From an uncultured Candidatus Saccharibacteria bacterium (GTDB taxonomy: Bacteria > Patescibacteriota > Saccharimonadia > CAILAD01 > BJGX01), in contig CAZSVP010000001.1 in the NCBI GenBank assembly GCA_964610335.1, positions 61,324-125,323 of the forward strand: DNA of 64,000 nt, read 5' to 3'. Position numbers and translations under genes: made by a program. The notes beneath the pieces were generated by a model. That model did not search any database, had not been told where the DNA came from, and worked only from the letters and a program-made list of their open reading frames with translations. Positions 2,513 through 61,845 of the stretch are shown piece by piece. The stretch's first letter is position 1. Each line of letters starts with the position of its first letter.

Positions 2513-4057
2513 TTACTTAGTTGATTGGCTGCGCTGCGACTTCAGCGTACGAAGTTTGTACGTCTCAGCCGACAGCTTGCCATCGCCTTGAACTTCATCA
2601 AAACTAGCAGGCTCTTTACTGTTAGCTATTGGTGAAATTATAGCATTTTTCAGATCATTTTGGAACAGCTTGAGCCGAGGGTTGCGAGTTGTAAGACCTA
2701 TCCATATAAGTAGTACTGAGTAGTAAGTAGTAATTTGCCAAAGGCTCGGCTGGATGATATTGATTTGAGATATTCGCCAACTGCTGATATAGCGCAACAA
2801 GTCAAACAGCACATTTGTACCATATGCCAACCACGTCCCCATAACAATCGAAGCACCAGGCACCAGCAAGTGTAATACTACCAAGGCCATGCCTACCATC
2901 ATAAGTGGTGGGATGATTGGCATGACTATTAGATTGGCCAATGGCGCTATCAGACTTATTTGCCCAAACTTGTAAGCTACTAATCCTAATGTAGCTATTT
3001 GAGCTGCCAGTGTAACTGCCAGTAACTCCATAAGGAGTTTTGGCCTAGATGGTAGTAGCAATTGCAATCTTGGGGTTAGTACAACTATTCCCACAAGTGA
3101 TAAAAATGACAATTGCCAACTCAAATCACTTAGTAAGTACGATGGGCTAATAGTAACCATAATGGCTGCACAAATACCAAGTGCGGGCAAAACTGCTCGA
3201 TCCTTGCCGTAATATCTAAGTACCAAGAATATTGAGGTCATGATCCCGGCACGCATGATTGAGGCGCCGGCACCTGTGAGTAGCACAAACCCCCATACCA
3301 GCCACAATGAGATCGCCAATCCACCCCAGCGCCAACGGCCGTTGAGCAGTCGATCGAGCATACCAGCTAGGATTGAAAGATTGTAGCCCGACACCGCAAT
3401 CACATGAGACAGACCTAACACTGTTAGCATATCCTGCAAATCCTTCGGTAACGATGATCGCTCGCCAATCAATATCCCGACCATGAAGTCACTGCTGGGC
3501 TTGGGCAAAGTAGCACCGACCTCGTTGATCAACCAATCCTTGGCTCGGATCTCAATCGGCTGGTTGGCGCTAATAACATCTACTTTGGCATAGCGTACAC
3601 CTGCCTCTGTACGCCCGAGGGTTGGCCAGAGCTTACCACTCACCTGGACACGATTACCTTGTTTAGCTATTCCAGTAAGCGATTTAACTCTGATGTTATG
3701 ATCAAACTGTTTGCCATTGATCGAAACACTGCCAATCTCAAATACATATTCTCCTTGTTGATCCCAGCTTGGCCGAGTTGCTACAGTACCAACTGCCACA
3801 ATCTTTTGGCCAAGAAAGTTTGTATATGAATATTGCTGTGCTTGTGAAAAGTAGAGATCCCCTCTCCAAATGCCAAGGCTTAAGCCAATCACCGCAAGTA
3901 GCACATAGGCATATTTAGAGTGGACAGTCGCCAAAGCTAACACACAATAAGCTGTTAACAGCAAGATCAAATTTGGCTGTATCAAAAAATGAGCGCTATA
4001 AACAATACCAACCAGAAAGCCTAATGCGAGTATAATTATTTGGACAGTTCGACGCAT
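2513..4057 (-). CDS. comEC: ComEC/Rec2 family DNA internalisation competence channel. Membrane domain only, no metallo-beta-lactamase domain.
   Basis: 514-aa polytopic membrane protein. An N-terminal OB-like soluble insert (DUF4131-like) is followed by the competence-domain helices (...LGLSHVIAVSGYNLSILAG...). Confidence 0.7.
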   Translation of the reverse strand: MRRTVQIIILALGFLVGIVYSAHFLIQPNLILLLTAYCVLALATVHSKYAYVLLAVIGLSLGIWRGDLYFSQAQQYSYTNFLGQKIVAVGTVATRPSWDQQGEYVFEIGSVSINGKQFDHNIRVKSLTGIAKQGNRVQVSGKLWPTLGRTEAGVRYAKVDVISANQPIEIRAKDWLINEVGATLPKPSSDFMVGILIGERSSLPKDLQDMLTVLGLSHVIAVSGYNLSILAGMLDRLLNGRWRWGGLAISLWLVWGFVLLTGAGASIMRAGIMTSIFLVLRYYGKDRAVLPALGICAAIMVTISPSYLLSDLSWQLSFLSLVGIVVLTPRLQLLLPSRPKLLMELLAVTLAAQIATLGLVAYKFGQISLIAPLANLIVMPIIPPLMMVGMALVVLHLLVPGASIVMGTWLAYGTNVLFDLLRYISSWRISQINIIQPSLWQITTYYSVLLIWIGLTTRNPRLKLFQNDLKNAIISPIANSKEPASFDEVQGDGKLSAETYKLRTLKSQRSQSTK

Positions 4058-6400: not shown

Positions 6401-8665
6401 TTATTTTACCAGTAATTTAGCAGTATCTACTAGGAATCGCCCAGCCAAAGCTCGACGACCTAACAAAGCCGGGAATATCATATTTGATCGATTACTCAAT
6501 GTAAAGGGCGTTACGAAGGTCTTGCCATTTACAGCAACCTCCAAATATACGACGTACCTGGTTTCTAACACCCCACTGGTGTTACGCACTCGGACCGTTT
6601 CATAGTCGTAGGATGTTGCTGGCTTTTCGGTTGATGCTGAAGGATGTTTTTCAACCAATGGCCAATACTTGATATAGTTCTTACCTTGCTGATCAACCTC
6701 TTCGACAACATCCTGACAATGTAGTGCACTGTAGTCTGCCCCAGAGTCAACTCGTGCTTCCACACCACTAAGGCCTAGCTGCTGAAAATCAAGCATTGCT
6801 TTGCGACCAATAATGTCAGTTTGGTCAAGTTGCTTGGATGATTTGCGAGTTTTGGGACGTGCTGCAAATGAAGTACTTGCCATCAAAAACAACACATTGC
6901 GGTGTTCGGACTTAAAAATATTGTCTTTAGAGTAGGCATAATGCTCACTTGTCATAGGATCGATTAGATAATTTCCAATGCGCGAGAAGTAACTGCTAGA
7001 ATCCTGCAATATTGGGTCGAACAATCTAGAGTTGTATCCACAAAGTGATGCTGCAACCAAGAACTCGTATTTATTATCAAGGCTAACACTCGCCCAAGAT
7101 TTATATATTGTCCTTTCGGCGACTTTTAGTAGCGCGCTACAGCGTAGGTCATTAACTCCCACATTATAAAACTCAGACAACCCAATAATAATATGTGTTA
7201 CAAAGTATAGCTGCAGTTGATCAGCAGTAGCTTGATCGATGCCTAGCCTACTTTTATTGGCTGCATAGCTATCGGCAATCTCTGTTAGTGCTGGCAATGG
7301 ATCCGGCAGCTGTTTTGATAGCTTCATGTTATGTTTGCTATAGAACCTGGCAAGATACAAGAAGTTTATGGCGTGGGTTGAAAGTATCATGAGTGCGTCT
7401 TTGTCTTCAAGCAAAACATTGTATAACTCGACCATGTACTTTTCATCTACGAACTTCTTGGCTTGTTCTCGCAGATCTTGTTGGTATATAGTCTCACAAA
7501 ACAGAACTTTAAATAGTATTCCGGTATAAGCTGTCAGTTGTGGATATTTAGCAAAGTACGGCGCTCTAGCCTCGGCATTCTTTGTCTTCTTACCACGAGT
7601 CTTTGAGTTTGTTTCAAAGATCTTCTGTAATTTACCAGCTGATTCCTTTGCTGAGAGACCTATGTATTCTTCTCTTAGTTCTAGCAAACGATGATGATAC
7701 TGTATATCCCTACCCCAGAGATACATACGCGAGTAATAATGGAACGCTTTGTTTTGGTTTGTTTTAAACGCCTGATCAAATGTGTCTTTGACAGCAAGGT
7801 AGGTTTCTTTGTGCCGAGTTTGAGAATTTTTTAGGTAGCTACAGATATTGGCAGCAACATCAATGCCAGTAACGTTTTGGAATTCTTGCCAATCAGCGGT
7901 AGTGCCAATTTCCAAAATGTAATACTGCTTAGTACGCTCATCTTGAATAATATCAATACTTGCAAACTCCAGCCCAAAGACTGCAGTTGCTCGTAGCGAC
8001 GTAGCTTTGAGCTGTTCTAATATGGCAGTATTTGACTCTTCTGCAGCCATACCACCTTGGCTAATATTGTTCACGATACTACCTGGTTTTGCACTACGAT
8101 GCATTACTCCAAGTACAGATCCGTTCAACACTAAAACACGCCAGTCACCTTTGTTTGGTATGTAGGTTTGGAATATATAATCCTTGTACTTCTTATCAAA
8201 CTTAGGCAAGTCAGTATTACTTTTAAGCAATACAATATTCTTGCCTTTTGTACCATAATTTGGCTTAGCAATAATAGGGAAGTATACTACACCCTGCTTG
8301 ATAGCATCTTCTAAGTCACTTAAGTTCCTTGGCCGAACTGTCGGGATAGCATACTCAGGCATATTCTCAGCTATCACGCTTTGCTGATAATATTTGTAGC
8401 TTGTATATGGGTTGTTAAGCGATATTCTATTGAGTAAGTGGTTGTCTTGTTCAATCAGCCTAGCAGCTGCGGCTTTTTCGGAACGGATATCCAACGATGA
8501 ACTACGCCATACCACTGCGGAATTATTGAACTTAAGCTGGCTATTTAGGTCCTTTCGAGGATTCAAGTTTACTATCTTAGTACTAAACCCATGTTTTTTG
8601 GCTGACGCTTGTAACTTTTGTACATGATAGTCTTTTGAATCTCGGGAGATTATTACTAGTTTCAT
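6401..8665 (-). CDS. Three-domain fusion: N-terminal RimK-like ATP-grasp ligase (about 290 aa), an unknown alpha-helical middle domain (about 310 aa), and a C-terminal DUF785/retropepsin-like domain (the putative ATP-dependent zinc protease, RimB-like).
   Basis: N-terminus: [49 protein letters not shown]-terminus: [20 protein letters not shown]...[46 protein letters not shown], typical of Zn_protease/DUF785. Confidence 0.7.
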
Positions 8666-20044: not shown

Positions 20045-23000
20045 TTATGGCTGAGTCGTGATAGTTTGGCTACTTGTAGTTGGCTCAGGCACTTGTGGTG
20101 ACTGTTGTTTTTTGAGTAGCTCTATTTCGGCTTCAAGCTTTTTAAGTCGATCTTCGTGATCTTCTACAATTCCACTAAGCTTCTTGAGCTCGGTAGAAAT
20201 AGACTCAAGCTGTAATCCTTGGTCTGCTAACAGCTTGTTAACATCGTCAATCTTACCGCCTTGTTCTTGCACGGCCTTGGTAATAAGAGCTGTAACCATA
20301 TCATAGTTAAAGCCCTCAATCTTGCCGTCGCGATAGAATACTAGCCGGTCATCAACCTTTGCTGCTTCTTCCGCCACAAAACCAATTGCTGCCCTATCAT
20401 CTGTATTATAGTTAAAGCTAACCGCTCGGAGCTTCATAAGATCATCCAACCCAAGGCTAAGATCCTCTATGTTATGTTTGTAGCGCTCCGATGAAACATT
20501 ACAAACACCGGCTTGCTTCACTAGTAACCCGCTGGCATCAACACATACGTACTGGCTCGATGCACCACCATTGGTAACATTATTAATATCGACCGTACCA
20601 CCAGCTATGGCCAACGTGTTGTTATTGGTGACAGTATACGGACCTCCTGTACCAAGTCCGATACCAACTGAGCCATCACCATCAACTGTCATGTTTTGGC
20701 CAAAAGCCGTTGATACTGATCCATTTGCAGCATTGGTATATCCAAATGATGTTGAGTCTAAACCCGTTGCAGATGTCGACTGGCCAAAAGCGGTGCCATA
20801 GTTGTCTGCCACTGTCTGGTACCCAAAGGCTGTGGCATAGAGTCCAGCATCTGTTTGAAATCCAAAAGCGGTGCCATAATCTCCACTAGCTGTTGTTTCA
20901 GCCCCAAATGCGGTAGACCCACCACCAAGCGCATTTGTCGTGAGCCCAAAAGCAGTAGAATTGTCGCCCGAGGCAATCGAACCTAACCCAAAAGCTGTAG
21001 AATACTCACCGCTGGCAGTTGTACTTGCTCCAAAGGCTGTAGCGCCTGTGTCTAATGCATTAGTATCAAACCCAAATGCGGTTGAGACTGCACCTGATGC
21101 CACTGAGGAGAACCCAAATGCGGTTGAGTACCCACCACTAGCCAAAGTACCAGATCCAAAGGCAGTGTCAGCCAAGCTTGAGGCAGTTGTAGCATTCCCA
21201 AAAGCTGTAGAAAGCGTACCACTTGCAACCGTGCCAGCACCAAAGGCAGTTGATTGACCACCACTAGCAGTACTGGTGTTACCAAAGGCTGTTGAGTAAA
21301 GACCGCTGGCAGTAGTAATGGTTCCAAAAGCTGTAGCACCCTGGCCAGTGATAGTATTGGTAAACCCAAACACAGTACCATAGACTGCGCCTGCACCAAT
21401 TGTATGCTGATGTCCAAATGCAACTGCACCGGTAGCACCAAGTGGAATCACGTTATTGTCACCAAAGGCAGTAGAACCGATAGCGTTGGCTTGATTGCCT
21501 TGACCAAATGCGATACTTCCTTCTTCACTTGCAGTGTTTAGCGTCCCAAAAGCAACAGCATAAAGGCCAGATGCGGTATTATTGGTGCCAAAGGCAGTCG
21601 AGTAGTTACCGCTTGCAACTGTAGTAGCACCAAATGCCGTAGACCCAAAACCACTTGCCAATGTGTCATCACCAAAAGCGGTTGAGCGGATTCCGCTTGC
21701 CTCAGTATTAATACCAAATGCTGTAGAATCAAAATTAGAAGCAAGCGTATCGTGGCCGAAGGCTGTGGTGTTTGAGCTTGTGGCATCACTACCATTGCCA
21801 AATGCAGTTGAGCCAGTTCCCGATGCAATAGTATTTATACCAAACGCAACAGCACCGTCATTAGTGGCCTGTGTGGTAGCGCCAAATGCCACTGACCCAA
21901 ATCCTGATGCCAGCGTTCCAACCCCAAAAGCGGTTGATTGATTGCCACTAGCGACCGTGCCCAACCCAAAGGCTGTAGCTGTATTACCCGAAGCATCAGT
22001 GCAAGCACCAAAAGCGGTTGCGCTAAATCCTGATGCAGTTGGATTGGGCAATAATGCACTTGCACAGTCTGTAGCTGGCACTAGATAGTAACTACTACCA
22101 AATGATGTAGCAAAGTCACCACTAGCAGTTGTAGTGGCACCAAATGCAGTGCTCTCAAAGCCGCTGGCGATTGTCCCTTGACCAAAGGCAGTTGAGCCAA
22201 AGCCGCTGGCGAGAGATGCAAAACCGAATGCAGTTGATGCTTGACCATCTGCGTGCGCGATAATTCCGAAAGCAGTTGAGTTGCTCCCACTAGCTATGGA
22301 ACCGCTACCAAAAGCAGTACTTTCAAATCCACTCGCTATGGTATTGTCTCCAAAAGCGATTGAATAATCGCCTATTGCCTGTGTGGTTAAACCAAATGCT
22401 GTTGAAAATTCTCCACTAGCTAATGACCCGGATCCAAACGCAGTCGAGCCTGTTCCACTTGCTTCTGTATTGTCGCCAAGAGTTGTAGATAGTAACCCAC
22501 TTGCAATTGTACTAGATCCAAGAGCGGTTGAGTTTGAACCACTAGCAATATTATTACTACCAAGAGCCATAGCATTGTCGCTCGTTGCCTGATTATGAAA
22601 GCCAAGTGCCACAGTGTAGTGATCACTGGCTACATTGGTGTCGCCCATTGCTAATGAGCTAAAACCGCTTGAAGTATTGAAGATCCCAAATGCCATTGCG
22701 TAGGAATTGTTAACAATATTGCCTGCGCCAATCGCAGTGGCAACCACACCAGACACGTTATTGTTGGAGCCGAAAGCAACTGATCCTAAGTTTGAAGTAA
22801 TATTGTCTATTCCGCCTGCAATGCTAGATGTACCGCTGGCAATATTGTCTTGCCCCACTGCTATTGAGTAGTATCCAACATTGGCGTCATCCCACTGAGT
22901 CCCTGTGACAGTACCGGCTCTCAATGCTGCCTTACCTGGGTTCCAAAACATTAGAGACTTACCTGCCCCTGGAGCAGGTAGAATAGGTGCAGCCGTACCG

Positions 23001-23566
23001 AGAGTTCCGGTAGCAATTAGACTACCACCGGCCGTTGCGTCAAATGTCAGATCAAAACCATTTTGCGGCAAGGTAGTATTGTGAAGCAGCGGATTAGTAC
23101 CAAACTCTAGTGTTGCACCACTTAGATATGTACCGTTTTGAGCTGTGGTAACTCCTGGCCCGCCTGCTGGACCGGTTGCACCAGTCGCACCTTGCAAACC
23201 AGTTGCGCCCACAGGGCCGGCCGGACCGGGTATTGGCGAGGTTGTGATTTGTTGAAGAGTTTGCTGAGTATTAGTCACAAACTGTTGCAGTTGAGAAGAT
23301 AGGTTGTTGAAAGTAACTGTTTCACCAGCAATTTTTAATCCAGTCACACTGCCGTCAGCTAAGTCCGTCTTACCAACTAAGCTACTATCAGGCGAGGGAC
23401 ACCAGCGGTCATTGAGCCCAAGCATACGGATATACCATACATCAGTACAGAGGCCACGAAGTATAATCACTATCACTAAAAACAATGCAGCTAAGCCGAC
23501 TAGTAGCCAGATGAGCCAGTGACTATTTGATTGATTCTTATCTTCTGTTGACTGACTTGTCGCCAT
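20045..23566 (-). CDS. Giant membrane-anchored surface fibre protein of 1,173 aa. Order of parts: N-terminal TM anchor, collagen-like G-X-Y triplets, about 50 degenerate 13-14-aa (A/S)SGxxSTAFG repeats (YadA-head/Hep_Hag-like), then a C-terminal peptidase S74 intramolecular chaperone (tail-spike autoprocessing) domain.
   Basis: TM LIWLLVGLAALFLVIVIIL. PGPAGPVGATGLQGATGATGPAGGPG. Repeats such as NTIASGTGSTAFG and DTLASGFGSTAFG. C-terminus SSERYKHNIEDLSLGLDDLMKLRAVSFNYNTDDRAAIGFVAEEAAKV...YDMVTALITKAVQEQ matches the S74 CIMCD, followed by a coiled coil. Confidence 0.8.
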   Translation of the reverse strand: MATSQSTEDKNQSNSHWLIWLLVGLAALFLVIVIILRGLCTDVWYIRMLGLNDRWCPSPDSSLVGKTDLADGSVTGLKIAGETVTFNNLSSQLQQFVTNTQQTLQQITTSPIPGPAGPVGATGLQGATGATGPAGGPGVTTAQNGTYLSGATLEFGTNPLLHNTTLPQNGFDLTFDATAGGSLIATGTLGTAAPILPAPGAGKSLMFWNPGKAALRAGTVTGTQWDDANVGYYSIAVGQDNIASGTSSIAGGIDNITSNLGSVAFGSNNNVSGVVATAIGAGNIVNNSYAMAFGIFNTSSGFSSLAMGDTNVASDHYTVALGFHNQATSDNAMALGSNNIASGSNSTALGSSTIASGLLSTTLGDNTEASGTGSTAFGSGSLASGEFSTAFGLTTQAIGDYSIAFGDNTIASGFESTAFGSGSIASGSNSTAFGIIAHADGQASTAFGFASLASGFGSTAFGQGTIASGFESTAFGATTTASGDFATSFGSSYYLVPATDCASALLPNPTASGFSATAFGACTDASGNTATAFGLGTVASGNQSTAFGVGTLASGFGSVAFGATTQATNDGAVAFGINTIASGTGSTAFGNGSDATSSNTTAFGHDTLASNFDSTAFGINTEASGIRSTAFGDDTLASGFGSTAFGATTVASGNYSTAFGTNNTASGLYAVAFGTLNTASEEGSIAFGQGNQANAIGSTAFGDNNVIPLGATGAVAFGHQHTIGAGAVYGTVFGFTNTITGQGATAFGTITTASGLYSTAFGNTSTASGGQSTAFGAGTVASGTLSTAFGNATTASSLADTAFGSGTLASGGYSTAFGFSSVASGAVSTAFGFDTNALDTGATAFGASTTASGEYSTAFGLGSIASGDNSTAFGLTTNALGGGSTAFGAETTASGDYGTAFGFQTDAGLYATAFGYQTVADNYGTAFGQSTSATGLDSTSFGYTNAANGSVSTAFGQNMTVDGDGSVGIGLGTGGPYTVTNNNTLAIAGGTVDINNVTNGGASSQYVCVDASGLLVKQAGVCNVSSERYKHNIEDLSLGLDDLMKLRAVSFNYNTDDRAAIGFVAEEAAKVDDRLVFYRDGKIEGFNYDMVTALITKAVQEQGGKIDDVNKLLADQGLQLESISTELKKLSGIVEDHEDRLKKLEAEIELLKKQQSPQVPEPTTSSQTITTQP

Positions 23567-23629: not shown

Positions 23630-25477
23630 TTATTTTGCTGGCTTGGCCTTGCGCTCGGCTGTGACTTGTTTGTCTATTGGAGCAAATAGTTTTTCGAACT
23701 CAGGTCCTTCAAGAGTTTCTTTTTCAATCAAGGTGTTGGCAATTAAGTCGAGTTGTTTGCGGTTTTTGACAATCACTTCTTGAGCTTTTTTACTTGCTTC
23801 ATCTATCAGCTTTGCTACTTCGTCATCTATCTTGGCAGCCATCTCTTCAGAGTAACTACGGCCCTCGCCCATACTACGGCCCAAGAATATTGAGCTCTCA
23901 CTATCACCAAAGTAGCGATTATTAAGCTGGGCGCTCATACCGTATTCAGTTACCATACGTCGAGCTAGCCCATTGGCGTGCTTAAGATCACTCTCGGCAC
24001 CAGTAGTAATGCTATCATCTCCAAACACTACTTTTTCAGCCGTGCGTCCACCAAGACTCATAGCTAGGTCATCACGAAAATCAGCAATAGAATGCAGATG
24101 TTTGTCTTCTTCCGGCAAACTCCAAGTTACTCCACCCGCCATGCCACGGCTCACAATCGATACCTTATGAACAGGGTGGCAATGTGGCAACAAGTGGCTT
24201 AGCAAGGCATGTCCAGCCTCATGAAAAGCCGTGATCTTCTTTTCTTCGTCGTTTAGAATATGACTTTTGCGCTCTGGGCCGAGGGCAATTTTTTCAACTG
24301 CCTCATGGAAGTCAGACTGCTGTACCTTCTTGCGGCCCGAACGAGCAGCAAAAATCGCCGCTTCGTTGGCAATGTTGGCTAGGTCAGCACCAGATACACC
24401 AGGTGTTTTGCGAGCAACTTCTTTGAGATTTACTCCTGATTCAAGTGGCTTATTCTTGGTGTGAACTTCGAGTATTTCCTCACGAGCTTTCAGATCTGGT
24501 GCATCAAGAGTGATACGACGATCAAAACGACCTGGCCGCAACAATGCAGGGTCCAGCACATCAGGGCGATTGGTTGCCGCCATCACAATCACGTTGGTAC
24601 CTTGCTCAAACCCATCCATCTCCACCAGTATTTGATTGAGAGTCTGCTCGCGCTCATCATGGCCACCACCCAAACCAGTACCACGTTGGCGACCTACTGC
24701 ATCGATCTCATCAACAAATATAATACATGGCGCGTTCTTCTTGGCCTTGGCAAATAAGTCACGCACCCGGCTTGCACCAACACCAACAAACATTTCTACA
24801 AACTCTGAGCCTGAGATACTAAAGAATGGTACATCGGCTTCACCAGCGACTGCACGTGCCAACAAAGTTTTACCAGTGCCTGGACTACCAAACAACAGTA
24901 CACCTTTTGGAGTTTTAGCGCCCAAAGCCTCAAACTTAGCTGGGTATTTGAGAAATTCTACAATCTCTTCAAGCTCAGTCTTGGCTTCGATGTTGCCAGC
25001 AACATCGGTAAATCTAACCTTTTCTTTTTCCAGCCCAGATACTCGCGCCTTGCTACGGCCAAAGTTCATTGCTTGATTGTTGCTGCCCTGTGCCTGGCGC
25101 ATAATAAAGTAGAAGAATCCTATAATAAGAGCAATTGGCAAGAAGGCTAGTATGATATCAATCCAGCGACCTGAGCCGTCATCTGGGTTCTTTGGTTCTA
25201 CCTTGACCTTGCTATAGTCTATTCCGTAGTCTTTGAGGCTAGTTGCATTTTCCTTATACGATTCTTCCTTGCCACCGTCTTTGAGGGTGACTGTGAGTTT
25301 GTTACCAACTAGCTCAATCTTCTCAACCTGTCCTTGATTGGCTTGTTCCAGCACTTTACTGAGCGATACTTGAGCTGGCTTGGGCTCGTTGTTCATGAAT
25401 ATCAAGTACAACAATACTAGCGCTATAGCAACGCCTGATATATAAAACACGTTTTTGGGAATATTTTTTAGATTCAT
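23630..25477 (-). CDS. ftsH: ATP-dependent zinc metalloprotease FtsH
   Basis: Two N-terminal TMs, AAA module [18 protein letters not shown], and the HEAGHAL zinc motif. Confidence 0.95.
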
Positions 25478-26805
25478 ACTAATTCACAAACTAGTTGAGC
25501 AGTGGCTTGGTCAGCTTGATTGGTAGTGTAGCGACGGTCATTTGCCAGTGTTGGCACCCAAACTACTTGATTGTCGGCGGTTACCACAATCGGCCAGCGA
25601 CGGCGAAGATTGCGTGGGACCTTCTGATCTACAAACACATCTTGCAGCTTCTTACTACCAGTCATGCCATAAGGCTTTACACGATCACCCGGCTGCCAAT
25701 AGCGCACATACAGATCTGACGTGTTGGTGTACGTTTGTGGTGCCATGGTAACTACTGGTTTTATCCGGTGTTTAAGCCGGAACATACCAGACTGATAAAT
25801 TTGACCAGAACGCAACGGCACAATCGTGTCGGAGCCGACCACCTTATCTCTCGGAGCTGTCAACGTGATTATCACACTAGCATAGTCACGTATCAGATGC
25901 AACCCTGTTGACAGATGGGTGGAGACACCCACTTTAGATACATCAAAAAAATGCACGGCTTGTTCAATGTTACTTTGTGACAGTTCTACGCCAGGGCGTA
26001 ATAGTTTAAATATGTATTCCAAAACATATGGCTTGATGGTCTTACTTAGTTGCTGCCATTTTTCTAAGTCAACCTCATATGTGGTGATACCTTGTTTTGT
26101 GCATAGTATATCTACCAACTGATCCAGCTGGGAATTGATACGCGCATTGAGACTATCAAGTGTATCAAGGCTGGTCGCATACTTACTCCTGAAGTTACGG
26201 TAATTCAAGCTGCCTTGTGGCATTAACTCATGACGCACAAAATTGCGTGAAAATCTTAAGTCTGAGTTAGTGCTGTCTTCGCGATAAGGTAAGTTACGTA
26301 GCCCTGCGTAAGTGATGATGCCTGCCTTATCAAATGGCAAAAGTGGGCGCAATACCTTGCCTCTTGCAGGTTGCAAAGCCGTAAGACCTAGCCGGTCAGC
26401 ACCACGAATGGCGTTGAAAATACTCGTCTCGAGCCGATCGTCGGCATGGTGGGCAGTTACGATATAGTCATAATTGCCACCATCACGGATGCTTTCCAAG
26501 AAATTGTAGCGAGCCTTGCGTAGTGCAGCCTCACGGGTTTCGCTGCCACTCAATTGACCTAGATAGAATTTGTATCCTCGCTCATCTGCAAGCTGAGCAA
26601 CCAGACTAGCATCTTCAGTGCTATCACTACGAACCTTATGGTCAAGATGTGCCACGGCGATCTGCCAGTTGTAGTAGTCATTGAGTTGATCTAGCAAATC
26701 AAGTAGTACTACAGAGTCCACTCCACCAGATACAGCCAGAAGTAGTCGGCTGCGTGGTGGCAACAAACTTGTGTTTTGCAAATGATAATGCAGATCTTGA
26801 AGCAT
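25474..26805 (-). CDS. tilS: tRNA(Ile)-lysidine synthetase TilS
   Basis: PP-loop LLLAVSGGVDSVVLLDLL. 443 aa. A 4-nt overlap with the ftsH start gives the conserved tilS-ftsH linkage. Confidence 0.85.
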   Translation of the reverse strand: MLQDLHYHLQNTSLLPPRSRLLLAVSGGVDSVVLLDLLDQLNDYYNWQIAVAHLDHKVRSDSTEDASLVAQLADERGYKFYLGQLSGSETREAALRKARYNFLESIRDGGNYDYIVTAHHADDRLETSIFNAIRGADRLGLTALQPARGKVLRPLLPFDKAGIITYAGLRNLPYREDSTNSDLRFSRNFVRHELMPQGSLNYRNFRSKYATSLDTLDSLNARINSQLDQLVDILCTKQGITTYEVDLEKWQQLSKTIKPYVLEYIFKLLRPGVELSQSNIEQAVHFFDVSKVGVSTHLSTGLHLIRDYASVIITLTAPRDKVVGSDTIVPLRSGQIYQSGMFRLKHRIKPVVTMAPQTYTNTSDLYVRYWQPGDRVKPYGMTGSKKLQDVFVDQKVPRNLRRRWPIVVTADNQVVWVPTLANDRRYTTNQADQATAQLVCELV

Positions 26806-27189: not shown

Positions 27190-27264
27190 TGGTAGCGGGG
27201 GTAGGATTCGAACCTACGACCTCCAGGTTATGAGCCTGACGAGCTGCCACTGCTCTACCCCGCG
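27190..27264 (-). tRNA. tRNA-Met (anticodon CAT), initiator-like
   Basis: Reverse complement cgcggggtagagcagtggcagctcgtcaggctCATaacctggaggtcgtaggttcgaatcctacccccgctacca. The 5' CGCGGGG and an unpaired 1:72 position are initiator-like. The anticodon stem has only two G-C pairs. Confidence 0.8.
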
Positions 27265-27304
27265 TTGTGTCGTATATAGTACCAAAAACCAGCTGTTTTT
27301 TCAA

Positions 27305-27381
27305 TGGTGGCTGCGGAAGGGATCGAACCTTCGACCTCAGGCTTATGAGTCCTGCGCTCTAACCGACTGAGCTACGCAGCC
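27305..27381 (-). tRNA. tRNA-Met (anticodon CAT), elongator-like
   Basis: Reverse complement ggctgcgtagctcagtcggttagagcgcaggactCATaagcctgaggtcgaaggttcgatcccttccgcagccacca. A 77-nt cloverleaf with encoded CCA. Confidence 0.8.
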
Positions 27382-32162: not shown

Positions 32163-32238
32163 TGGTGGGCCCGGTTGGATTTGAACCAACGACCAAGCGA
32201 TTATGAGTCGCCTGCTCTGACCACTGAGCTACGGGCCC
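32163..32238 (-). tRNA. tRNA-Ile2 (anticodon CAT, the predicted lysidine LAU tRNA)
   Basis: Reverse complement gggcccgtagctcagtggtcagagcaggcgactCATaatcgcttggtcgttggttcaaatccaaccgggcccacca. The anticodon arm and surrounding region (GAGCAGGCGACTCATAATCGCTTGGTCG) are identical to E. coli tRNA-Ile2 as recalled. Confidence 0.8.
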
Positions 32239-33665: not shown

Positions 33666-34823
33666 CTAAGCTTTAGCAGGAAGCTGTTTGGCACGAATAG
33701 CCGCTATTCGCTCTCGACTACGCCCCACAATGGCCCCTATGCCCGCTATGGCAGCTACAAACCCTACTAAGCTGCCCAGAAACGGTATTAGGCCTACCGC
33801 TGCTAGCAAACCAGCCCCCAACAACAACTCTAGAGTCAGTGTACCGAAGCTGTAGGTTTTGCGCTTGAGTAGCCATTTGCCGATACAGTATGCTGTCATA
33901 AGCCCGCCCAACATCAGTACTGCCACATAGATAAGTAGACCAAAGATAGCCAGCTCAAACCCCACCATGGTAATTGCTACAAGGATAAGCGCCATAGGTG
34001 TTAAGAAGGCAAAGCCTACACCGTATAGAATTGATTTACCCAAGTATGATTGTTCCCAAGTTGCTGTAGCTCGAGCGCTACCAGGCAATACGCTAAATGT
34101 CACCAAACCTAATGCCAGTGAAGCCACCAGTAAGAACAAGGCACCAAGAACCATCGCAACTACTGATGTACCTGCAGTTGGCTTAGGGGTATCCACTATC
34201 TTGGTAATTGAGCCGGTGATGTTTTTGTCATTGGATATATTCACCTTGGCATCACTGACGTAAGCTAAGTTTCCGTCGATCTGAGCATTCTTACCAAGTG
34301 TAATCTCACTAGCATAGATCTTGGTATTGCTGCCAATGGTACCATCAACAGTTACTTGTGACCCAAAAAGGTATGCTTGTGTTCCTACATTGCCCTGCTG
34401 GTTGTAAATAGAGCCAAATGCCACCATGGAGCCAGCGACTTTAGCATCTTTTCCTACGGTGATATCACTACCAGCTAGGTAGCTACTACCCCCTACTCGG
34501 CCTTCAATAGTCACCTTGCTACCAGCAGCCATTACATTACCCCTTACGGTGCCTTTGACAGTCACTTCGCTTGCTGCAGCATAGAGAGAGCCTTCGATGT
34601 CGCCATTGATCACTACTGTACTACCAGCCAGCCAAGCATCACCAGTGACCTTGCCATCAATCGTTACACTTTCACCAGACTTAGCAAGCAAACCATTGTG
34701 TATATCTGAAGCAGACAATACCACACTGGCCGGCTGATCGTTATTTGACGCCATAGCTACGCCTGCCACACTAGTGAGCGCAAACAATGCAAGCATCACT
34801 ATTATCACTATTTTCTTTATCAT
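33666..34823 (-). CDS. Membrane protein with an N-terminal signal peptide, bactofilin-like (DUF583) beta-helical repeats, and a C-terminal polytopic TM domain
   Basis: Repeats VTIDGKVTGDAWLAGSTVVINGDIEGSLYAAASEVTVKGTVRGNVMAAGSKVTIEGRVGGSSYLAGSDITVG, followed by about six TMs. Confidence 0.5.
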   Translation of the reverse strand: MIKKIVIIVMLALFALTSVAGVAMASNNDQPASVVLSASDIHNGLLAKSGESVTIDGKVTGDAWLAGSTVVINGDIEGSLYAAASEVTVKGTVRGNVMAAGSKVTIEGRVGGSSYLAGSDITVGKDAKVAGSMVAFGSIYNQQGNVGTQAYLFGSQVTVDGTIGSNTKIYASEITLGKNAQIDGNLAYVSDAKVNISNDKNITGSITKIVDTPKPTAGTSVVAMVLGALFLLVASLALGLVTFSVLPGSARATATWEQSYLGKSILYGVGFAFLTPMALILVAITMVGFELAIFGLLIYVAVLMLGGLMTAYCIGKWLLKRKTYSFGTLTLELLLGAGLLAAVGLIPFLGSLVGFVAAIAGIGAIVGRSRERIAAIRAKQLPAKA

Positions 34824-39815: not shown

Positions 39816-42800
39816 CTAGTAGGCTTGCCAGTTGAACTCGACGTCGCTAGATTGAGCTTTGTTGAGCTCAATAGTAAAGCTGTCTTTGTCGATGGCTGTG
39901 GTACGATACGGCCCATCTACAAAATCTTGGGGGCTAACTACTACGTTTGGAACTGAAACGAAGCTCGACGCAAAAGGAACCTTGAGTTTGGTATCACCAG
40001 CGACTACCTTGGCTTTGCCTTTGTTGTCAGAGCTAAATTCTACTCGACCATTCACTACCAGGTTTCCATTTATTGTAATTGCTTTGGCCTTGGCAAGTTC
40101 TGTCAATACGTCAACCGAAACAGTAGTTTGGGAATCAAGTTGAGACTTCAGATCGTTGATCTGCGACTGTTGTTGTTTGATAGCTTGTACAAGATATGGC
40201 GTAAGCCCGGCGTAACTAACTGACTTCATACCATTTTTGTCTGTAAGTACTAAGTCTGGCATGATCGCTTCCAGCTCCTGAGCCAAGAAACCAACATGAA
40301 CAGGGTCGTCGTCTTTCTCGGCTGTGAGGTTGTAGCTATACACTTTGATAGCACCAATCTTCTCAAGCGAGTCGGTAATCTCACTGATGTTTTTCTTAAC
40401 TCTAATGTCTGAGGTACAAGTAACTGCTCCAACTACGTTTGGCGTAACATCACAAGTACCACCGGCGTTTTCAAAGCGTGCCACCGTAGTGCCACTAACA
40501 AGGCTTCCGTCGCCAACATGTAGGTTAAATCCTGGTGCAGAATTGTGTACACCTACATATCCAGCTGTCTGATTAAGGAGTATATTCCCATCTGTAGTAC
40601 CCGTACCAGATGCAATCACCACATCACCGCCTGCAGCACCATTACCATTGGCTCCTAGGATAGACAATGCGGCGCCAGCCGTAGCAGCAGATGTTGAATC
40701 ATTGATCTTTATAGTATGAGCTAACTCTTGATCAAAAAATACATCACCACCTAGTTGCGTGTTGGCAGCAAAGTTTACATCATCTAGCGCACTAACGCTT
40801 CCTCGAAATGACGAGTTACCATAAACTTGAAGTGCACCAATTATATTGGTGTTACCGGCAGTAAGCGTGGTAGCCCCACCACCATCTGTTAATGAGGTTG
40901 AAGATTCTGAATTGAAAGTAAGATCGAGTGCACCAGATACGCCTACTCTACGTGTGCTGCTCATCTGTACAGTGTCTACTGTGTTTGAGCCATCGGTAGA
41001 ACCGCCAATCAAGAACACGTAGCCGTTCGTGACAACAGCTGCTTGCTGTTCAATACCAGTTGCCATATCACTCTCATGCTCCTTCCAGGTTCCTAAATCA
41101 CCATCAGGCTGCAATGGGGCAGTCGAGGTAATAACTTGTGGCACTCCGACAAGATCACCACCAACCCTATAGAGATTGCCGCTATTTACAAACGCCGTAT
41201 GATTGAATGTGCCATAAACAGGACCATTGCTAGCTGTACTCCAGGCGTTGTTTGAACCATCGGGATTCAATGAAGCATATTTTACGGAATCACCTCCTAA
41301 ATCTAAGTAGTACAAGAACCCGTTGGCCACTACCGCATCTGCTGCCTTCCAAGAGCTTGGCAGCGGCGTGGCGCTAGTTGTCCAACTAGCGATAGTTCCA
41401 TCTGAATTTGGCTTGGCATAGTAGACCGAACTGAAGTTACTGAAGTTGTCAGTACCAGCTACTACGTACATATAACCATTGTTTTGAGCCCCACCATAGA
41501 AGGCCCTTAAACCAGGTAAGCTAGTAGTGCTGCGCCAAGTACCAACACTGCCGTCGGCATTGATTCGAGCATAGTATACTGTCGAGACTGCAAATGGGCC
41601 GACTCCGTCTTCACCACCTACTACGTATATGTAACCGTTTTGGATGAATGTCTTATGCCCAGAACGAGGTACTGGTAATGGAGTGGTAGAAGACCAACTC
41701 AATGTTCCTTCAGCTCCAACCTTGGAGTAATAGACACTAGTGGTCGCCGAGCTTACGCCATCATCACCACCCGTCAGATATATATACCCATTAGCATAAC
41801 CATACCCCATATTCTTGAGTGGTGTTGGAAGAGTATTGGCCGGACTACTCACCCAGCGTCCGGTTGGATTATACGGCGAGGCAATATTTGCTGTAAGGGC
41901 AGCACTATTCTCACTATTTAAGAATGTAGAACTACTGAGTGCATTGGCCGCTGCACCAGTAGTTAAAATATTGAATGCTGTGGTTGGGTATGGTCCAGAC
42001 AGGGTATTGGTACCGGCCTGATCAATTATGGCAATTCCGGCCACGTTGGCAACAATTCCCCCACCATTGTTTACTGGACTTAAAACTTGAACACCTGATA
42101 GATTGGTAATTGTGCCAGTACCAGTATTACCGTATCCTACAAACAGCCCACCACCATTGGTGATGGTACCATCGGAAGTATTGAACATATATGAGCCAAG
42201 TCCGTATCCAGTAGTTATGGTGCCCGACCCCACATTGACCAATGTACCATTGACTCCCGCGCCAGCCGTGACTGTACCAGAGCCTTGATTGTAAAACGCG
42301 CCGAACTCGCCTGCACCGAGAGTAATATTCCCTGTTCCACTATGAACCGCAAGTGAAGAAGCCCCACTTAAACCAGTGTAATCAAAACCATTTTCAACCT
42401 CAACTTGGGCAGATGAGTAACTACCTGTGAAACCAGATGCTCCAGCATCAGTATCGCCTTTGATATAAATTTCACTACCTGTACCAGAGTAAACAGTCGG
42501 TGTTACTGCAAATGGTAAGCCGCTAAATTCTTCTTGAACAGCCAAAACCCTAGTAGTAGGAATGGGTGTCATGGGTATTACAGGTATATTCATCGGCCCT
42601 AAAGCAATTGGCCCTATGATGCTGCCTGTACCAAAAGTAGAATCTGCACCGATTGCAGCATGATTGTGGATCCAGCCATTGCCGTACACATCAAGTGACT
42701 GTTGTGGTGATGCTGTATTTATACCCAGACTACCCGCGGCATTGAATGTTGACATCACACTGCCTGAGCTGTTCTCCAAGGCAAACATATCTGCCAACTG

Positions 42801-43292
42801 GCCACTGGCACCACGAATTATACCTCCTGCAAAGTAGGGATTAGCTGACTGAATAGCAAAGTTCTTACTTGGCTCCACTGCATAGGAATTACATATTACA
42901 CTCTGAACACAGCCGACAGTCGGATTGTTTGTCACAAACAGTGATGTATTGTTTGAACTGTTCGCGTTTGTGACTGACAGGTTTTGTTGGTTTTGGTTAA
43001 TAGCTGACTGTAAGTACGCAGCAATACCCGGTGTAAGTTGGTCAAACCCAATCGATCCATCGGCTATTTCAGCGCTCGCGGCCGGTAATCGTCCACCACT
43101 GCCTTGTTGACTATTGCGAACATTACCCAAATCCCACCATAACAGAAGTATTAGTATTAACAACAGTATCACAGCCACAATTATCACATCGGACAATATA
43201 CGTAACCATTGTACGCGCTTGGCTGTTACTTCACTTTCATGTACTAGATCGATTTGGTCGACTTGACCAGTTTGATCGTAAGGCTCTTCCAC
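39816..43292 (-). CDS. Giant membrane-anchored surface protein of 1,158 aa. Order of parts: N-terminal TM, a beta-rich Gly/Thr/Ser region, Kelch-type beta-propeller repeats, a peptidase S74 intramolecular chaperone domain, then a roughly 100-aa C-terminal tail.
   Basis: TM VIIVAVILLLILILLLWW. Kelch-like repeats (NGYIYVVGGEDG..., NGYMYVVAGTDN..., NGFLYYLDLGGD..., NGYVFLIGGSTDG). S74 motif TSDIRVKKNISEITDSLEKIGAIKVYSYNL...VHVGFLAQELEAIMPDLV...SYAGLTPYLVQAIKQQQSQINDLKSQL. Confidence 0.8.
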   Translation of the reverse strand: MEEPYDQTGQVDQIDLVHESEVTAKRVQWLRILSDVIIVAVILLLILILLLWWDLGNVRNSQQGSGGRLPAASAEIADGSIGFDQLTPGIAAYLQSAINQNQQNLSVTNANSSNNTSLFVTNNPTVGCVQSVICNSYAVEPSKNFAIQSANPYFAGGIIRGASGQLADMFALENSSGSVMSTFNAAGSLGINTASPQQSLDVYGNGWIHNHAAIGADSTFGTGSIIGPIALGPMNIPVIPMTPIPTTRVLAVQEEFSGLPFAVTPTVYSGTGSEIYIKGDTDAGASGFTGSYSSAQVEVENGFDYTGLSGASSLAVHSGTGNITLGAGEFGAFYNQGSGTVTAGAGVNGTLVNVGSGTITTGYGLGSYMFNTSDGTITNGGGLFVGYGNTGTGTITNLSGVQVLSPVNNGGGIVANVAGIAIIDQAGTNTLSGPYPTTAFNILTTGAAANALSSSTFLNSENSAALTANIASPYNPTGRWVSSPANTLPTPLKNMGYGYANGYIYLTGGDDGVSSATTSVYYSKVGAEGTLSWSSTTPLPVPRSGHKTFIQNGYIYVVGGEDGVGPFAVSTVYYARINADGSVGTWRSTTSLPGLRAFYGGAQNNGYMYVVAGTDNFSNFSSVYYAKPNSDGTIASWTTSATPLPSSWKAADAVVANGFLYYLDLGGDSVKYASLNPDGSNNAWSTASNGPVYGTFNHTAFVNSGNLYRVGGDLVGVPQVITSTAPLQPDGDLGTWKEHESDMATGIEQQAAVVTNGYVFLIGGSTDGSNTVDTVQMSSTRRVGVSGALDLTFNSESSTSLTDGGGATTLTAGNTNIIGALQVYGNSSFRGSVSALDDVNFAANTQLGGDVFFDQELAHTIKINDSTSAATAGAALSILGANGNGAAGGDVVIASGTGTTDGNILLNQTAGYVGVHNSAPGFNLHVGDGSLVSGTTVARFENAGGTCDVTPNVVGAVTCTSDIRVKKNISEITDSLEKIGAIKVYSYNLTAEKDDDPVHVGFLAQELEAIMPDLVLTDKNGMKSVSYAGLTPYLVQAIKQQQSQINDLKSQLDSQTTVSVDVLTELAKAKAITINGNLVVNGRVEFSSDNKGKAKVVAGDTKLKVPFASSFVSVPNVVVSPQDFVDGPYRTTAIDKDSFTIELNKAQSSDVEFNWQAY

Positions 43293-60584: not shown

Positions 60585-61724
60585 TCAGCGTAAACCCAAG
60601 GCTTTCTTGTACACAGCCAAGGTTTGCTTGGCGGTTTTGGCCCAAGTATATTTCTTAACTTGAGTATAACCTTTCTTCGCCAAGGCCTTACGAATATCAT
60701 CATCTGATAGAACCTTGGCTATTACCTTGGCCATCTGATTCACATTGGTAGGGTCAAAATATTCAGCTGCGTCACCCAGTACTTCTGGCAAACACGAGGC
60801 ATTGGAACTCACTACGGGCACACCATGGCTCATGGCTTCAAGCGCGGGCAAGCCAAAGCCTTCAGACATGGATGGAAACACGTACAGTGCTGCCTTGTTA
60901 TAAAAGCCTGCTAACTCATTGTCGCTGACAAAATCCGTGAAGATAATGCGGTTTTGTAGCTTGGCCTCAGCAACATCTTTTTCTAACTCTTTGTGAAACG
61001 AGTCTTTCTTGCCTACTATTACAAGTTGGTAGTCGAGCATATATTCTGTCACCAGTTTGCCAAAAGCGATTATTAGCCGTTCGAGATTCTTGTGGGGGTA
61101 GGCATTGCCAGCATACATAAGATACGGCTTCAACACACCATAACTCTCTAAGTTTACACGTGGCGTAGCCAAGTCTTGACTGGCGGCTTGGTATGTAACA
61201 AATATCTTATTGCGACGCACCCCAAACTGCTTGGCTATGCCTTCTTTGACGTATTCGGTCGGCACTATTATCGCCTTGGATCGTTTGGCGCCAGTACGTA
61301 GAGTTACTCGCATGGCCATTTCTTTGACGGCATAAACGTAGCGATGTCCAAACTTCTTGCGAATATTGCGAAACTGCAAAAGCGTGAGATCGTGAATGGT
61401 CACTACAAACTTTCCCTTATAGCCAATAGGAAAATTGAAGTTAGTGAAGTGTACCAAGTCTGGCTTGAGCTCAGTGATCTTCTTGAGTAACAATGTTTGT
61501 TCTTTGGTGGTGTACCAACCAATATTGACTGGCACAATTGTAAGATTGTCTGCTTTGAGATCAATCTTGGGTATATCTTCATCACGCGTCAACATAAGGT
61601 ATTGATTGTGTTTGTCTAGTAACAGCAACTCTCGCACGGTGTTTTCGATATAGCGACCAATGCCGGTGGCCTTGATCCAACGACCATCAATAACTATTCG
61701 CTTACCTGGTTCGGTTTTGTTCAT
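60585..61724 (-). CDS. Glycosyltransferase family 4 (GT-B fold)
   Basis: C-terminal FPSMSEGFGLPALEAMSHGVPVVSS E-x7-E region. 379 aa. Confidence 0.85.
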   Translation of the reverse strand: MNKTEPGKRIVIDGRWIKATGIGRYIENTVRELLLLDKHNQYLMLTRDEDIPKIDLKADNLTIVPVNIGWYTTKEQTLLLKKITELKPDLVHFTNFNFPIGYKGKFVVTIHDLTLLQFRNIRKKFGHRYVYAVKEMAMRVTLRTGAKRSKAIIVPTEYVKEGIAKQFGVRRNKIFVTYQAASQDLATPRVNLESYGVLKPYLMYAGNAYPHKNLERLIIAFGKLVTEYMLDYQLVIVGKKDSFHKELEKDVAEAKLQNRIIFTDFVSDNELAGFYNKAALYVFPSMSEGFGLPALEAMSHGVPVVSSNASCLPEVLGDAAEYFDPTNVNQMAKVIAKVLSDDDIRKALAKKGYTQVKKYTWAKTAKQTLAVYKKALGLR

Positions 61725-61845
61725 AGGACATATTATACCCTACCTAGCAAGCTTCAAGCGTGTTGAATCTGCTCCATGCTTGCATCGCTATTTTGATTGC
61801 ATTAATTTCATTTGTAATACCTGTCCCACGAGCATACTAGGAGGA

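Follow-up and report, generated by a model that had tools for sequence, protein, structure and literature searches.

What does a gene that encodes a chaperone of the phage tail-fibre type do among the housekeeping genes of an ultrasmall, epibiotic bacterium? This question is raised by a 64,000-nucleotide stretch of DNA from an uncultured Candidatus Saccharibacteria bacterium (GenBank assembly GCA_964610335.1, contig CAZSVP010000001.1, positions 61,324 to 125,323 of the forward strand), which was analysed as a whole and is termed the window in the following. The gene in question encodes a long, repetitive protein, here called the fibre, that ends in a Peptidase_S74 (S74) intramolecular chaperone domain. 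An original prediction, made from the letters alone, had viewed this protein as a domesticated phage tail fibre used as a surface adhesin. That reading turned out to be essentially right; what it did not see is a mosaic family with several paralogs, of which the fibre is one member. Our analysis makes it probable that the fibre is a membrane-anchored and S74-matured component of the cell surface, which belongs to this mosaic family and plays a role as an adhesin or in recognition.

Domain architecture of the fibre

The class of the protein is evident from its C-terminal end, where Pfam detects Peptidase_S74 (PF13884) at aa 1025-1076 with E=8.4e-8 and 32.8 bits against a cutoff of 22 bits. The motifs S-E-R-Y-K-H-N-I and AIGFVAEE, on which the assignment had first been based, are both present, the former as S1025-S-E-R-Y-K1030-H-N-I. 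Ser1025 and Lys1030 are invariant in an alignment of 30 diverse C-terminal homologs; in the T5 tail fibre protein pb1 the dyad is Ser1264/Lys1269, and the mechanism of cleavage has been described (PMC4690869). A search of the PDB with the single C-terminal sequence yielded matches at E~0.4 only. The profile built from the 30 sequences matched phage S16 gp37 (6f45, 3.5e-23), the MyRF ICA domain (7dc3, 6e-22), 8jov (1e-19), T5 pb1 (8hqz, 8e-9) and phi29 gp12 (3gud, 4e-6), as well as, more weakly, the structures 8ojn, 8ond and 8ol4 of the "mosaic adhesive trimeric" (MAT) proteins of Bdellovibrio. Weak matches to the C-terminus also came from PHROG tail-fibre families. The fibre is a bona fide S74-domain protein.

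The predicted fold of this region matches that of known S74 chaperones. An AlphaFold2 (AF2) model of aa 965-1173 has a mean predicted local distance difference test score (pLDDT) of 78, with values >90 across the core, and comprises a small mixed α/β core followed by a helix of ~68 residues (aa 1088-1155), which carries hydrophobic residues at 14 of 20 a/d positions in its best heptad register. All seven top PDB matches returned by Foldseek for this model are intramolecular chaperones, namely 7dc3 (probability 1.0, TM-score 0.58, target-normalised) and then six weak chains of 3gw6 (endoNF). The distal tip that precedes the chaperone is among the best-conserved parts between orthologs (79-93% identity), and a Cys pair at this place, immediately ahead of the cleavage Ser, is a recurrent feature of the family.

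After the coiled-coil helix the chain runs out in an S/T/P/Q-rich tail that ends in Pro (aa ~1153-1173, 20048..20110, minus strand). Nearly all family members of the coiled-coil type likewise end in Pro (...TTQP, ...VTSQP, ...TITP, ...SPTP, ...EQTP), and this tail might serve as a signal for glycosylation or sorting of the chaperone fragment once it is released.

Most of the protein is a shaft of YadA-head repeats. YadA_head (PF05658) is matched by Pfam at E=4e-88 in 25 two-copy stretches, and from aa ~225 to 968 we counted ~52 Gly-terminated units, of which 37 are exact 14-mers with the consensus xxTxASGxxSTAFG; the expectation of about 50 tandem SGxxSTAFG repeats was thus borne out. Both Pfam families that had been named for a check of the prediction, PF13884 and PF05658, are therefore matched. 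Self-identity of the protein reaches 0.43 at a lag of 14 residues, compared with 0.05-0.08 at lags of 13 and 15. The array had been put at ~2.7 kb and described as visible in the DNA. It measures 2.23 kb, and at the DNA level it is detectable as a weak 42-nt periodicity (in-frame identity at lag 42 of 0.489 versus a background of 0.291 +/- 0.039), from which Tandem Repeats Finder picks up only two pieces of ~95 nt. The term DNA-level tandem array thus fits it less well than that of a protein-level repeat that has a weak 42-nt periodicity.

Structure prediction places the shaft among the heads of trimeric autotransporter adhesins (TAAs). In an AF2 model of aa 141-560 the confidence is low in the linker, rises to high values in the N-terminal cap and reaches a pLDDT of ~98 in the repeats, where the strands follow a strict 14-residue periodicity. 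The motif of the cap is invariant across phyla (P70, R76, G78 and W85 in alignment A4). The top Foldseek matches of the head model are exclusively TAA heads, led by BpaC (7o23; E=2.4e-11, TM-score 0.66, 31% identity) and continued by CbpF, BoaA, UspA1, EibD, AtaA and YadA. The TAA models of NCBIfam align only to head segments and remain far under their cutoffs, and PHROGs contribute two families of unknown function over the repeats. The array is broken once, by a loop at aa 491-522 (SSYYLVPATDC...AFGAC) that is modelled with low confidence. Similar Cys-flanked insertions occur in P0002, P0008 and the P0009 group, and this loop is a candidate ligand-binding loop.

The N-terminal module consists of a transmembrane (TM) helix, a Cys-loop, a stalk and a collagen-like run. 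In agreement with the predicted N-terminal anchor, there is one hydrophobic segment, with a Kyte-Doolittle mean over 19 residues of 3.28; the rest of the protein never exceeds 1.6. In the family alignment W17, W20, L36 and R37 of this segment are invariant, and a K/R just ahead of it is usual among the members. Invariant positions continue into the Cys-loop (L39, C40, W44, Y45, C56), whose motif is found in 23 of 25 family members, and into the stalk (G76, A80, N88, L89, S90). The collagen-like segment holds exactly nine perfect and uninterrupted triplets with 4 Pro, where roughly nine had been predicted, and a G-X-Y run of 8-14 triplets occupies the same position in 22 of the 25 members. The Pfam Collagen model (PF01391) scores this short segment at E=0.11 and 12.7 bits (cutoff 27.2), and in relatives with longer runs it reaches E~1e-4, which is still under the cutoff. 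The six Cys residues of the fibre form three local pairs (40/56, 501/522 and 1008/1022), and the Cys count is even in 24 of 25 family members; the even counts and local pairs fit disulfide-bonded loops outside the cytoplasm.

Two other modes of attachment were considered and rejected. A lipobox at "LRGLC" is at odds with the consensus, given Leu at -1 and Arg at -3, and sortase anchoring is discounted, as the fibre has no LPXTG motif. The stalk element "DGSVTGxKIAxETVxxxNLS" is present once in the fibre and in 5-23 internal copies in many other large proteins, including P0144, P0147, P0155, P0166 and P0183, all of which were matched by the N-module profile described below; it looks like a widespread fibre repeat that still lacks a name. 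The features of the fibre and of a second fibre in the window are compiled in Table 1.

Table 1. Coordinates of the fibre gene, its protein segments and the second fibre in the window
Feature	Residues (aa)	Coordinates	Strand	Remarks
Fibre coding sequence, including stop codon	1-1173	20045..23566	minus	open reading frame list; ATG start, 1,173 aa, 116 kDa
N-terminal tail, presumably cytoplasmic	1-16	23519..23566	minus	precedes the sole hydrophobic segment
Single TM helix, putative uncleaved signal-anchor	17-37	23456..23518	minus	WLIWLLVGLAALFLVIVIILR; from hydropathy
Juxtamembrane Cys-loop motif	38-60	23387..23455	minus	GLCTDVWYIRMLGLNDRWCPSPD; Cys40 and Cys56
Proximal stalk	61-113	23228..23386	minus	"DGSVTGxKIAxETVxxxNLS" motif and Q/T-rich segment
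Collagen-like segment	114-140	23147..23227	minus	GPAGPVGATGLQGATGATGPAGGPGVT; regular expression, nine uninterrupted G-X-Y triplets
Linker and N-terminal head cap	141-238	22853..23146	minus	...GAGKSLMFWNPGKAALRAGTVTGTQWDDANVG...
Predicted YadA-head-type left-handed β-roll shaft	239-968	20663..22852	minus	~50 turns of 14 residues
Cys-flanked loop insertion in shaft	491-522	22001..22096	minus	Cys501 and Cys522; breaks the 14-aa register
Pre-cleavage distal tip	969-1024	20495..20662	minus	Cys1008 and Cys1022; predicted mature C-terminus
Catalytic motif S1025-S-E-R-Y-K1030	1025-1030	20477..20494	minus	Ser/Lys dyad; predicted scissile bond between Val1024 and Ser1025
Peptidase_S74 intramolecular chaperone	1025-1173	20048..20494	minus	16.7 kDa, predicted to be released
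Second TM-anchored S74 fibre		39816..43292	minus	1,158 aa; S74 E=1.9e-16 and Kelch (Pfam)

A cellular locus and a mosaic family in Saccharibacteria

The fibre gene is surrounded by housekeeping genes. On the minus strand the order is tilS (25474..26805), ftsH, fibre, murJ, lepA, two genes for small membrane proteins, hrcA, grpE and dnaK. The gap from the upstream ftsH to the fibre gene measures 63 nt, that from the fibre stop codon to murJ only 24 nt, and a Shine-Dalgarno-like GGTGAG lies 7 nt 5' of the ATG. A scan of the locus for promoters and terminators gave no signal above chance, and the fibre gene is probably co-transcribed with the envelope and housekeeping genes ftsH and murJ. The order TilS-FtsH-fibre-MurJ-LepA-HrcA-GrpE-DnaK is also found around the closest homolog, P0001 (47% identity over 55% of the query), on a 337-kb contig (L001). 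In two further Saccharibacteria metagenome-assembled genomes (MAGs; L004 and L006) a fibre N-terminus directly follows ftsH, and the FtsH of L004 is 91% identical to that of the window. The fibre gene is a stable cellular gene, syntenic in at least three other Saccharibacteria genomes; its cellular nature follows from the housekeeping neighbours, the conserved locus and the lack of relatives in viral contigs, which is detailed below.

The combination of YadA_head and S74 is common in itself. At E<1e-5 we obtained 2,381 database matches, many of them annotated as "tail fiber domain-containing protein", from Bacteroidota, Kapabacteria, Wallbacteria and Saccharibacteria, and most of these proteins begin with ordinary signal peptides. 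The architecture is recognisable, partly named in databases and not unique to the fibre. What sets the fibre apart is its N-module, composed of the TM helix, the L-R-G-L-C...W-Y...C motif, the "DGSVTGxKIAxETV..NLS" element and the G-X-Y run. A profile of the N-terminal ~112 aa was run in an exhaustive HMMER search against 1.84 billion cluster representatives and retrieved only 111 proteins at E<1e-3. The module is rare, being N-terminal in ~35 of them; the other matches cover the DGSVTG element only, as an internal repeat. Word-index searches with the single sequence or the alignment recovered 3-7 short proteins only. In a genome collection, five of seven N-module matches are labelled, all of them as "Candidatus Saccharibacteria" MAGs, and the other two are unlabelled; one MAG carries at least three N-module loci. 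Judged by these matches, the module of TM helix, Cys-loop and collagen-like run appears to be restricted to Saccharibacteria.

Behind this constant N-module the family is a mosaic. The module is joined to YadA-head shafts in the window fibre, P0001 and P0008, to other β-helices in P0074, P0076 and P0124, and to Kelch propellers in P0127. Several family sequences are fragments without a visible C-terminus; the full-length members examined all have the Cys pair and then S74 at the C-terminal end. The S74 domain is followed either by a coiled coil and an S/T/P tail or by a "...WQAF" β domain. The window fibre fits the definition of the family in every part, with the TM helix, the motif L-R-x-[LI]-C...W-[YI]...C, the G-X-Y run, the shaft, the Cys pair and S74.

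The window itself encodes a second S74 fibre. Its layout comprises an N-terminal TM segment, the sequence "ADGSIGFDQL", a β-helix, a Kelch propeller at aa ~500-712, the Cys pair, S74 and a "...FNWQAY" end. Along its full length the protein shares 47% identity with P0127, a member with the Cys-loop N-module; with the first window fibre it has only the S74 domain in common. A tblastn search of the window with the N-module found no paralog, the second fibre being missed on account of its divergent N-terminus. The GTG start listed for the second fibre may be wrong. Two further proteins, P0074 and P0076, combine an N-module 76% identical to that of the window fibre with different shafts and the "...WQAF" C-terminal domain. 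They are recorded on a contig of 420,536 bp, and the FtsH and Kelch fibre of the window are likewise recorded on a 420,536-bp NCBI contig. Because of this shared value, P0074 and P0076 are probably located on the contig of the window, and a total of at least four such fibres is probable for this genome.

Sequence divergence is unevenly distributed along the fibre. In the relative with the 91%-identical FtsH the shafts of two copies (L004 and L005) are 34-66% identical to that of the window fibre; the tip and S74 domain of L005 are 86-93% identical, and the L004 copy ends before the tip. P0001 shows the same pattern, with 31-47% identity in the shaft and 79-82% in the tip and S74. Among close relatives, the fibre changes far more quickly than the genes on either side. 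A literature search for S74, endosialidase-chaperone or tail-fibre proteins in Saccharibacteria or Patescibacteria retrieved no report, and the mosaic multi-paralog family with TM, Cys-loop and collagen-like run appears to be undescribed so far.

Predicted maturation, function and rival explanations

The domain order suggests how the fibre may be assembled. The hydrophobic segment (aa 17-37) would insert into the cytoplasmic membrane as an uncleaved signal-anchor in N-in/C-out orientation, such that ~1,135 residues are exported. Outside the cell, the S74 chaperone and its coiled-coil helix would align three chains, and the S74 trimer would then template folding from the C- towards the N-terminus, beginning with the tip, proceeding through the ~50-turn shaft and ending with the collagen-like segment. 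Once the correct trimer has formed, Ser1025/Lys1030 would cut between Val1024 and Ser1025 and free the 16.7-kDa chaperone fragment. The mature chain of 99.6 kDa would remain tethered by its N-terminus, with the Cys1008-Cys1022 loop as the distal end exposed by cleavage. Trimerisation and cleavage are modelled on homologs, namely T5 pb1 and the K1F endosialidase (PMC4690869) and Bd3182 of Bdellovibrio (PMC10769870). By analogy and in view of the epibiotic lifestyle, the product would adhere to or recognise the surface of the epibiont's host cell, and its shaft, tip and loop insertion may confer specificity.

The dimensions of such a fibre can be estimated. A β-roll rises by ~0.48 nm per turn and collagen by ~0.29 nm per residue. 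The 52 turns correspond to ~25 nm and the 27 collagen residues to ~8 nm; adding stalk and tip, the mature fibre would have a length of roughly 35-40 nm.

Several points weigh against this account. The structure models are all monomers, and the trimer is one that we infer. The best Foldseek E-value of the chaperone model is a modest 2.8e-3 (7dc3), the scores being modest since a monomer model is compared with intertwined trimers. The residue at +1 of the catalytic Ser is Ser and not the near-invariant Asp (SSERYK versus SDxxxK); this Ser is a feature of a sub-clade, and the consensus Asp lies outside the proposed S74 catalytic mechanism (PMC4690869). For an autonomous collagen helix, nine triplets are a small number and do not reach the Pfam cutoff, and the positive-inside rule is indecisive, with 1 K/R before the TM segment and 2 after it. 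The papers retrieved in our searches connect host attachment of Saccharibacteria with type IV pili and other adhesins and not with the fibre family; for Patescibacteria they point to type IV pili and a small number of glycan-binding proteins (PMC10633639, PMC12206443), and a transposon sequencing (Tn-seq) study of Southlakia names adhesin candidates other than the fibre family.

The strongest alternative, which we regard as unlikely, takes the fibre as a structural envelope component, i.e., a coat, a spacer fibre, a protective layer or a phage decoy, which would be matured in the same manner and would not recognise a host. Such a role would agree with the absence of a known ligand and with the position of the gene amid ftsH and murJ, with which it is probably co-transcribed, since murJ follows after only 24 nt and no terminator stood out from chance. 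It would also agree with the finding that tip and chaperone are the best-conserved parts, unlike the hypervariable tips of many receptor-binding proteins, and YadA-head arrays can be mostly structural. Yet all solved structures with a matching head fold are adhesin heads, and the fast divergence of the shaft, the mosaicism and the several paralogs per genome are typical of interaction proteins. Moreover, the Bdellovibrio analogues act in prey handling. We therefore prefer a role in adhesion or recognition to a purely structural one.

A second alternative concerns the anchor. Should the N-terminal segment be a signal peptide that is cut off, the secreted fibre would either leave the cell or be held non-covalently at the wall. 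YadA_head and S74 proteins from other phyla (P0003 and P0007) do begin with ordinary signal peptides, and the flanking charges fix the topology only weakly. However, a hydrophobic core of ~20 residues exceeds what is usual in Sec signal peptides, the segment is not followed by a small-x-small cleavage motif, and neither LPXTG nor another wall-anchoring signal is available as a substitute anchor. L36, R37, L39, C40, W44, Y45 and C56 are invariant, which would be unexpected in a discarded leader; the invariance of the residues flanking the TM segment argues for its retention in the mature protein. Hence, we judge cleavage improbable and retain the signal-anchor in the proposed scheme.

Very little speaks for a third view, in which the gene is a tail-fibre gene of a phage, prophage or tailocin whose product acts on a virus-like particle. 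S74 chaperones are classically domains of phage tail fibres and tail spikes, the C-terminus of the fibre has weak PHROG tail-fibre matches, and a few phages pair YadA-like repeats with S74. An example is Methylophilales phage Venkman, which matches with 28% identity over 49% of the query. Against this stand the N-terminal membrane anchor and the chromosomal position, kept in at least three other genomes. As already noted in the original prediction, no phage gene flanks the fibre gene. In a tblastn search of GenBank phages only distant and partial matches were found, all with <60% identity, and two scans of the 2.9 million contigs of IMG/VR were empty, yielding neither a relative of the N-module nor a close relative of the C-terminal 211 aa. 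On these grounds a phage origin was rejected. The notion of a "domesticated tail fibre" overstates the link to phages.

Finally, it is hardly credible that the array arose by misassembly or that the gene is a pseudogene. Repeat arrays are error-prone, contigs of a close strain break off early in the gene and the exact protein is missing from a large protein collection, but the frame is intact across 1,173 codons, the 42-nt units average only 51% nucleotide identity, and the longest exact repeat in the gene is 18 nt with no recurring 20-mer. Moreover, the Logan assembly of run SRR14932608 (L011), which was made independently, shows 100% identity with the window across 12,222 bp, a stretch that contains the complete gene (3,522 bp). 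The syntenic ortholog P0001 is of similar length (1,135 aa), and in a related MAG an open reading frame on a separate contig (L005) extends over at least 1,201 codons. The array is thus too degenerate to be misassembled, and the concern about an artefact, which had been raised together with the prediction, is settled by the identical independent assembly.

The early contig ends deserve a separate remark. In three other runs the Logan contigs (L012, L013 and L014) of a strain with 98% identity contain only the first 138-260 nt of the fibre gene and end just past the region coding for TM helix and Cys-loop. These ends may reflect strain variation in the rest of the gene, or N-module DNA that is repeated among paralogs and interrupts short-read assembly. 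The exact 1,173-aa protein was absent from a collection of 15 billion proteins in which the neighbouring proteins are present, and the homolog search returned no near-identical protein; the absence of the repetitive fibre protein from the collection is probably a quirk of database processing. No Pfam match is recorded for the fibre gene called in L011.

If the fibres serve in adhesion or recognition, they bear on the question of how ultrasmall, epibiotic Patescibacteria recognise their hosts. The family provides a concrete and testable candidate class for this process, i.e., mosaic, long and predicted trimeric fibres, with several copies per genome of ~0.4-0.8 Mb, and by analogy the fibres probably help epibiotic Saccharibacteria to attach to their hosts. 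The invariant N-module offers a sequence handle to catalogue such fibres in metagenomes and to correlate variants with hosts. A bolder idea, which we advance as a tentative one and with some doubt, is that Saccharibacteria possess a private, fast-diversifying repertoire of anchored, collagen-stalked and S74-matured fibres that determines host recognition and colonisation. If so, this repertoire would represent a cellular counterpart of phage receptor-binding proteins, independent of or parallel to the MAT proteins of Bdellovibrio; S74 would replace the outer-membrane barrel of autotransporters as trimer nucleus in a cell without an outer membrane; and swaps of shaft or tip should re-target the host range.

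Elsewhere in the window, several genes are noteworthy in their own right. A ComEC-type competence channel (2513..4057, minus strand) fits the natural competence reported for Saccharibacteria. The gene at 6401..8665 (minus strand) encodes a 754-aa protein, in which a RimK-like ATP-grasp domain (aa ~100-277) is fused to a putative ATP-dependent zinc protease (PF05618, aa 619-750). Further products are a bactofilin-domain protein of 385 aa (33666..34823, minus strand) and an LGFP-repeat protein of the cell-wall-binding type with 430 aa (61660..62952, plus strand). An Rfam scan of the window detected five tRNAs only. Three of the tRNA genes, two of them in tandem, are tRNA-Met genes with a CAT anticodon (27190..27381 and 32163..32238, minus strand), which presumably represent the initiator, elongator and tRNA-Ile2 precursor types.

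Comparison with known systems

The S74 domain of the fibre belongs to the same family as the chaperones of the phage proteins K1F endosialidase (3GW6), T5 pb1 (4UW8/8HQZ), S16 gp37 (6F45) and phi29 gp12 (3GUD) and as the MyRF ICA domain (7DC3). All share the invariant Ser-x4-Lys dyad, the C-terminal placement on a β-rich fibre, which in our case is predicted to be trimeric, and a mixed α/β core followed by a coiled-coil helix. In contrast to the phage domains, the fibre chaperone is part of a membrane-anchored cellular protein and not of a virion, and it would fold a YadA-type roll. Moreover, it features S-S-E-R-Y-K instead of S-D-x-x-x-K, a helix of ~68 residues and an S/T/P-rich tail ending in Pro. 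The "tail fiber domain-containing proteins", for which our searches brought up no experimental study, share with the fibre the core architecture and the head N-cap GTRMxWxPxKxAFRAG...WD..N[IV]G. Unlike the fibre, these proteins have ordinary signal peptides and often several head modules, and they lack the N-module of TM helix, Cys-loop and collagen-like run.

Collagen-like stalks are known from other bacterial surface proteins. In Scl1 and Scl2 of Streptococcus and in BclA of Bacillus, a G-X-Y stalk is placed between an anchoring element and a distal domain of globular or β-rich type, and a separate domain nucleates the trimer. These stalks comprise tens to hundreds of triplets, compared with 9 in the fibre and 8-14 in its family. 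Attachment also differs, since Scl1, Scl2 and BclA are linked through LPXTG or to the exosporium, whereas the fibre features an N-terminal TM helix and an S74 trimerisation domain.

Among the analogues, the MAT family of Bdellovibrio bacteriovorus has been studied best (Caulton et al. 2024; PMC10769870). Thirteen of its 21 members end in S74, self-cleavage has been shown experimentally for Bd3182 (S782), and these cellular fibres have a demonstrated role as surface adhesins (PMC10769870). Both sets of fibres are cellular and multi-paralogous and combine a constant N-module with variable, trimeric and β-rich shafts and tips (predicted ones in our case), and the carriers of both live attached to other bacteria. 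The description of MAT as mosaic paralogs that share an N-module and mostly end in S74 also covers what was found in Saccharibacteria, i.e., two S74 fibres in the window, P0074 and P0076, and a MAG with at least three loci. Compared by description, only MAT proteins carry a cleaved signal peptide and, directly behind it, a conserved β-rich N-domain of ~130 aa that binds to a surface element of a diderm cell (PMC10769870). The Saccharibacteria family, unlike MAT, has a TM helix, a Cys-loop and a collagen-like run, and its lineage is regarded as monoderm. The shaft of the window fibre is a predicted YadA-head β-roll as opposed to the intertwined β-helix of MAT, and homology between the two is detectable in the S74 region only. 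By analogy, the fibre thus appears to resemble MAT in its working and to differ in anchoring module, shaft and lineage, and the mosaic family seems to follow the same logic as phage receptor-binding proteins and MAT fibres.

The TAAs of the type Vc pathway (YadA, BpaC, BoaA, UspA1, AtaA) share with the fibre shaft the 14-residue YadA-head repeat, predicted to form a left-handed parallel β-roll; TAA heads are obligate trimers and adhesive. Despite its TAA-type head the fibre does not belong to the TAAs, for it lacks their anchor and stalk domains: at E<=1 Pfam found no match to the YadA_anchor barrel (PF03895), nor did it find the YadA_stalk/neck domain (PF05662). The head array is much longer, with ~50 turns versus 9 turns in YadA. 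Polarity is reversed as well, since the anchor is N-terminal in the fibre and C-terminal in TAAs, and the lineage of the fibre is regarded as offering no outer membrane for insertion. The trimer is presumably nucleated by S74 in the fibre, as opposed to the C-terminal barrel in TAAs. The fibre thereby shows how an adhesin head that is normally linked to the outer-membrane type Vc pathway may be deployed in a cell thought to be devoid of an outer membrane. Its layout inverts the TAA plan, in that an N-terminal helix would provide the anchor and a disposable chaperone the nucleus, an arrangement that suits a lineage regarded as lacking an outer membrane.

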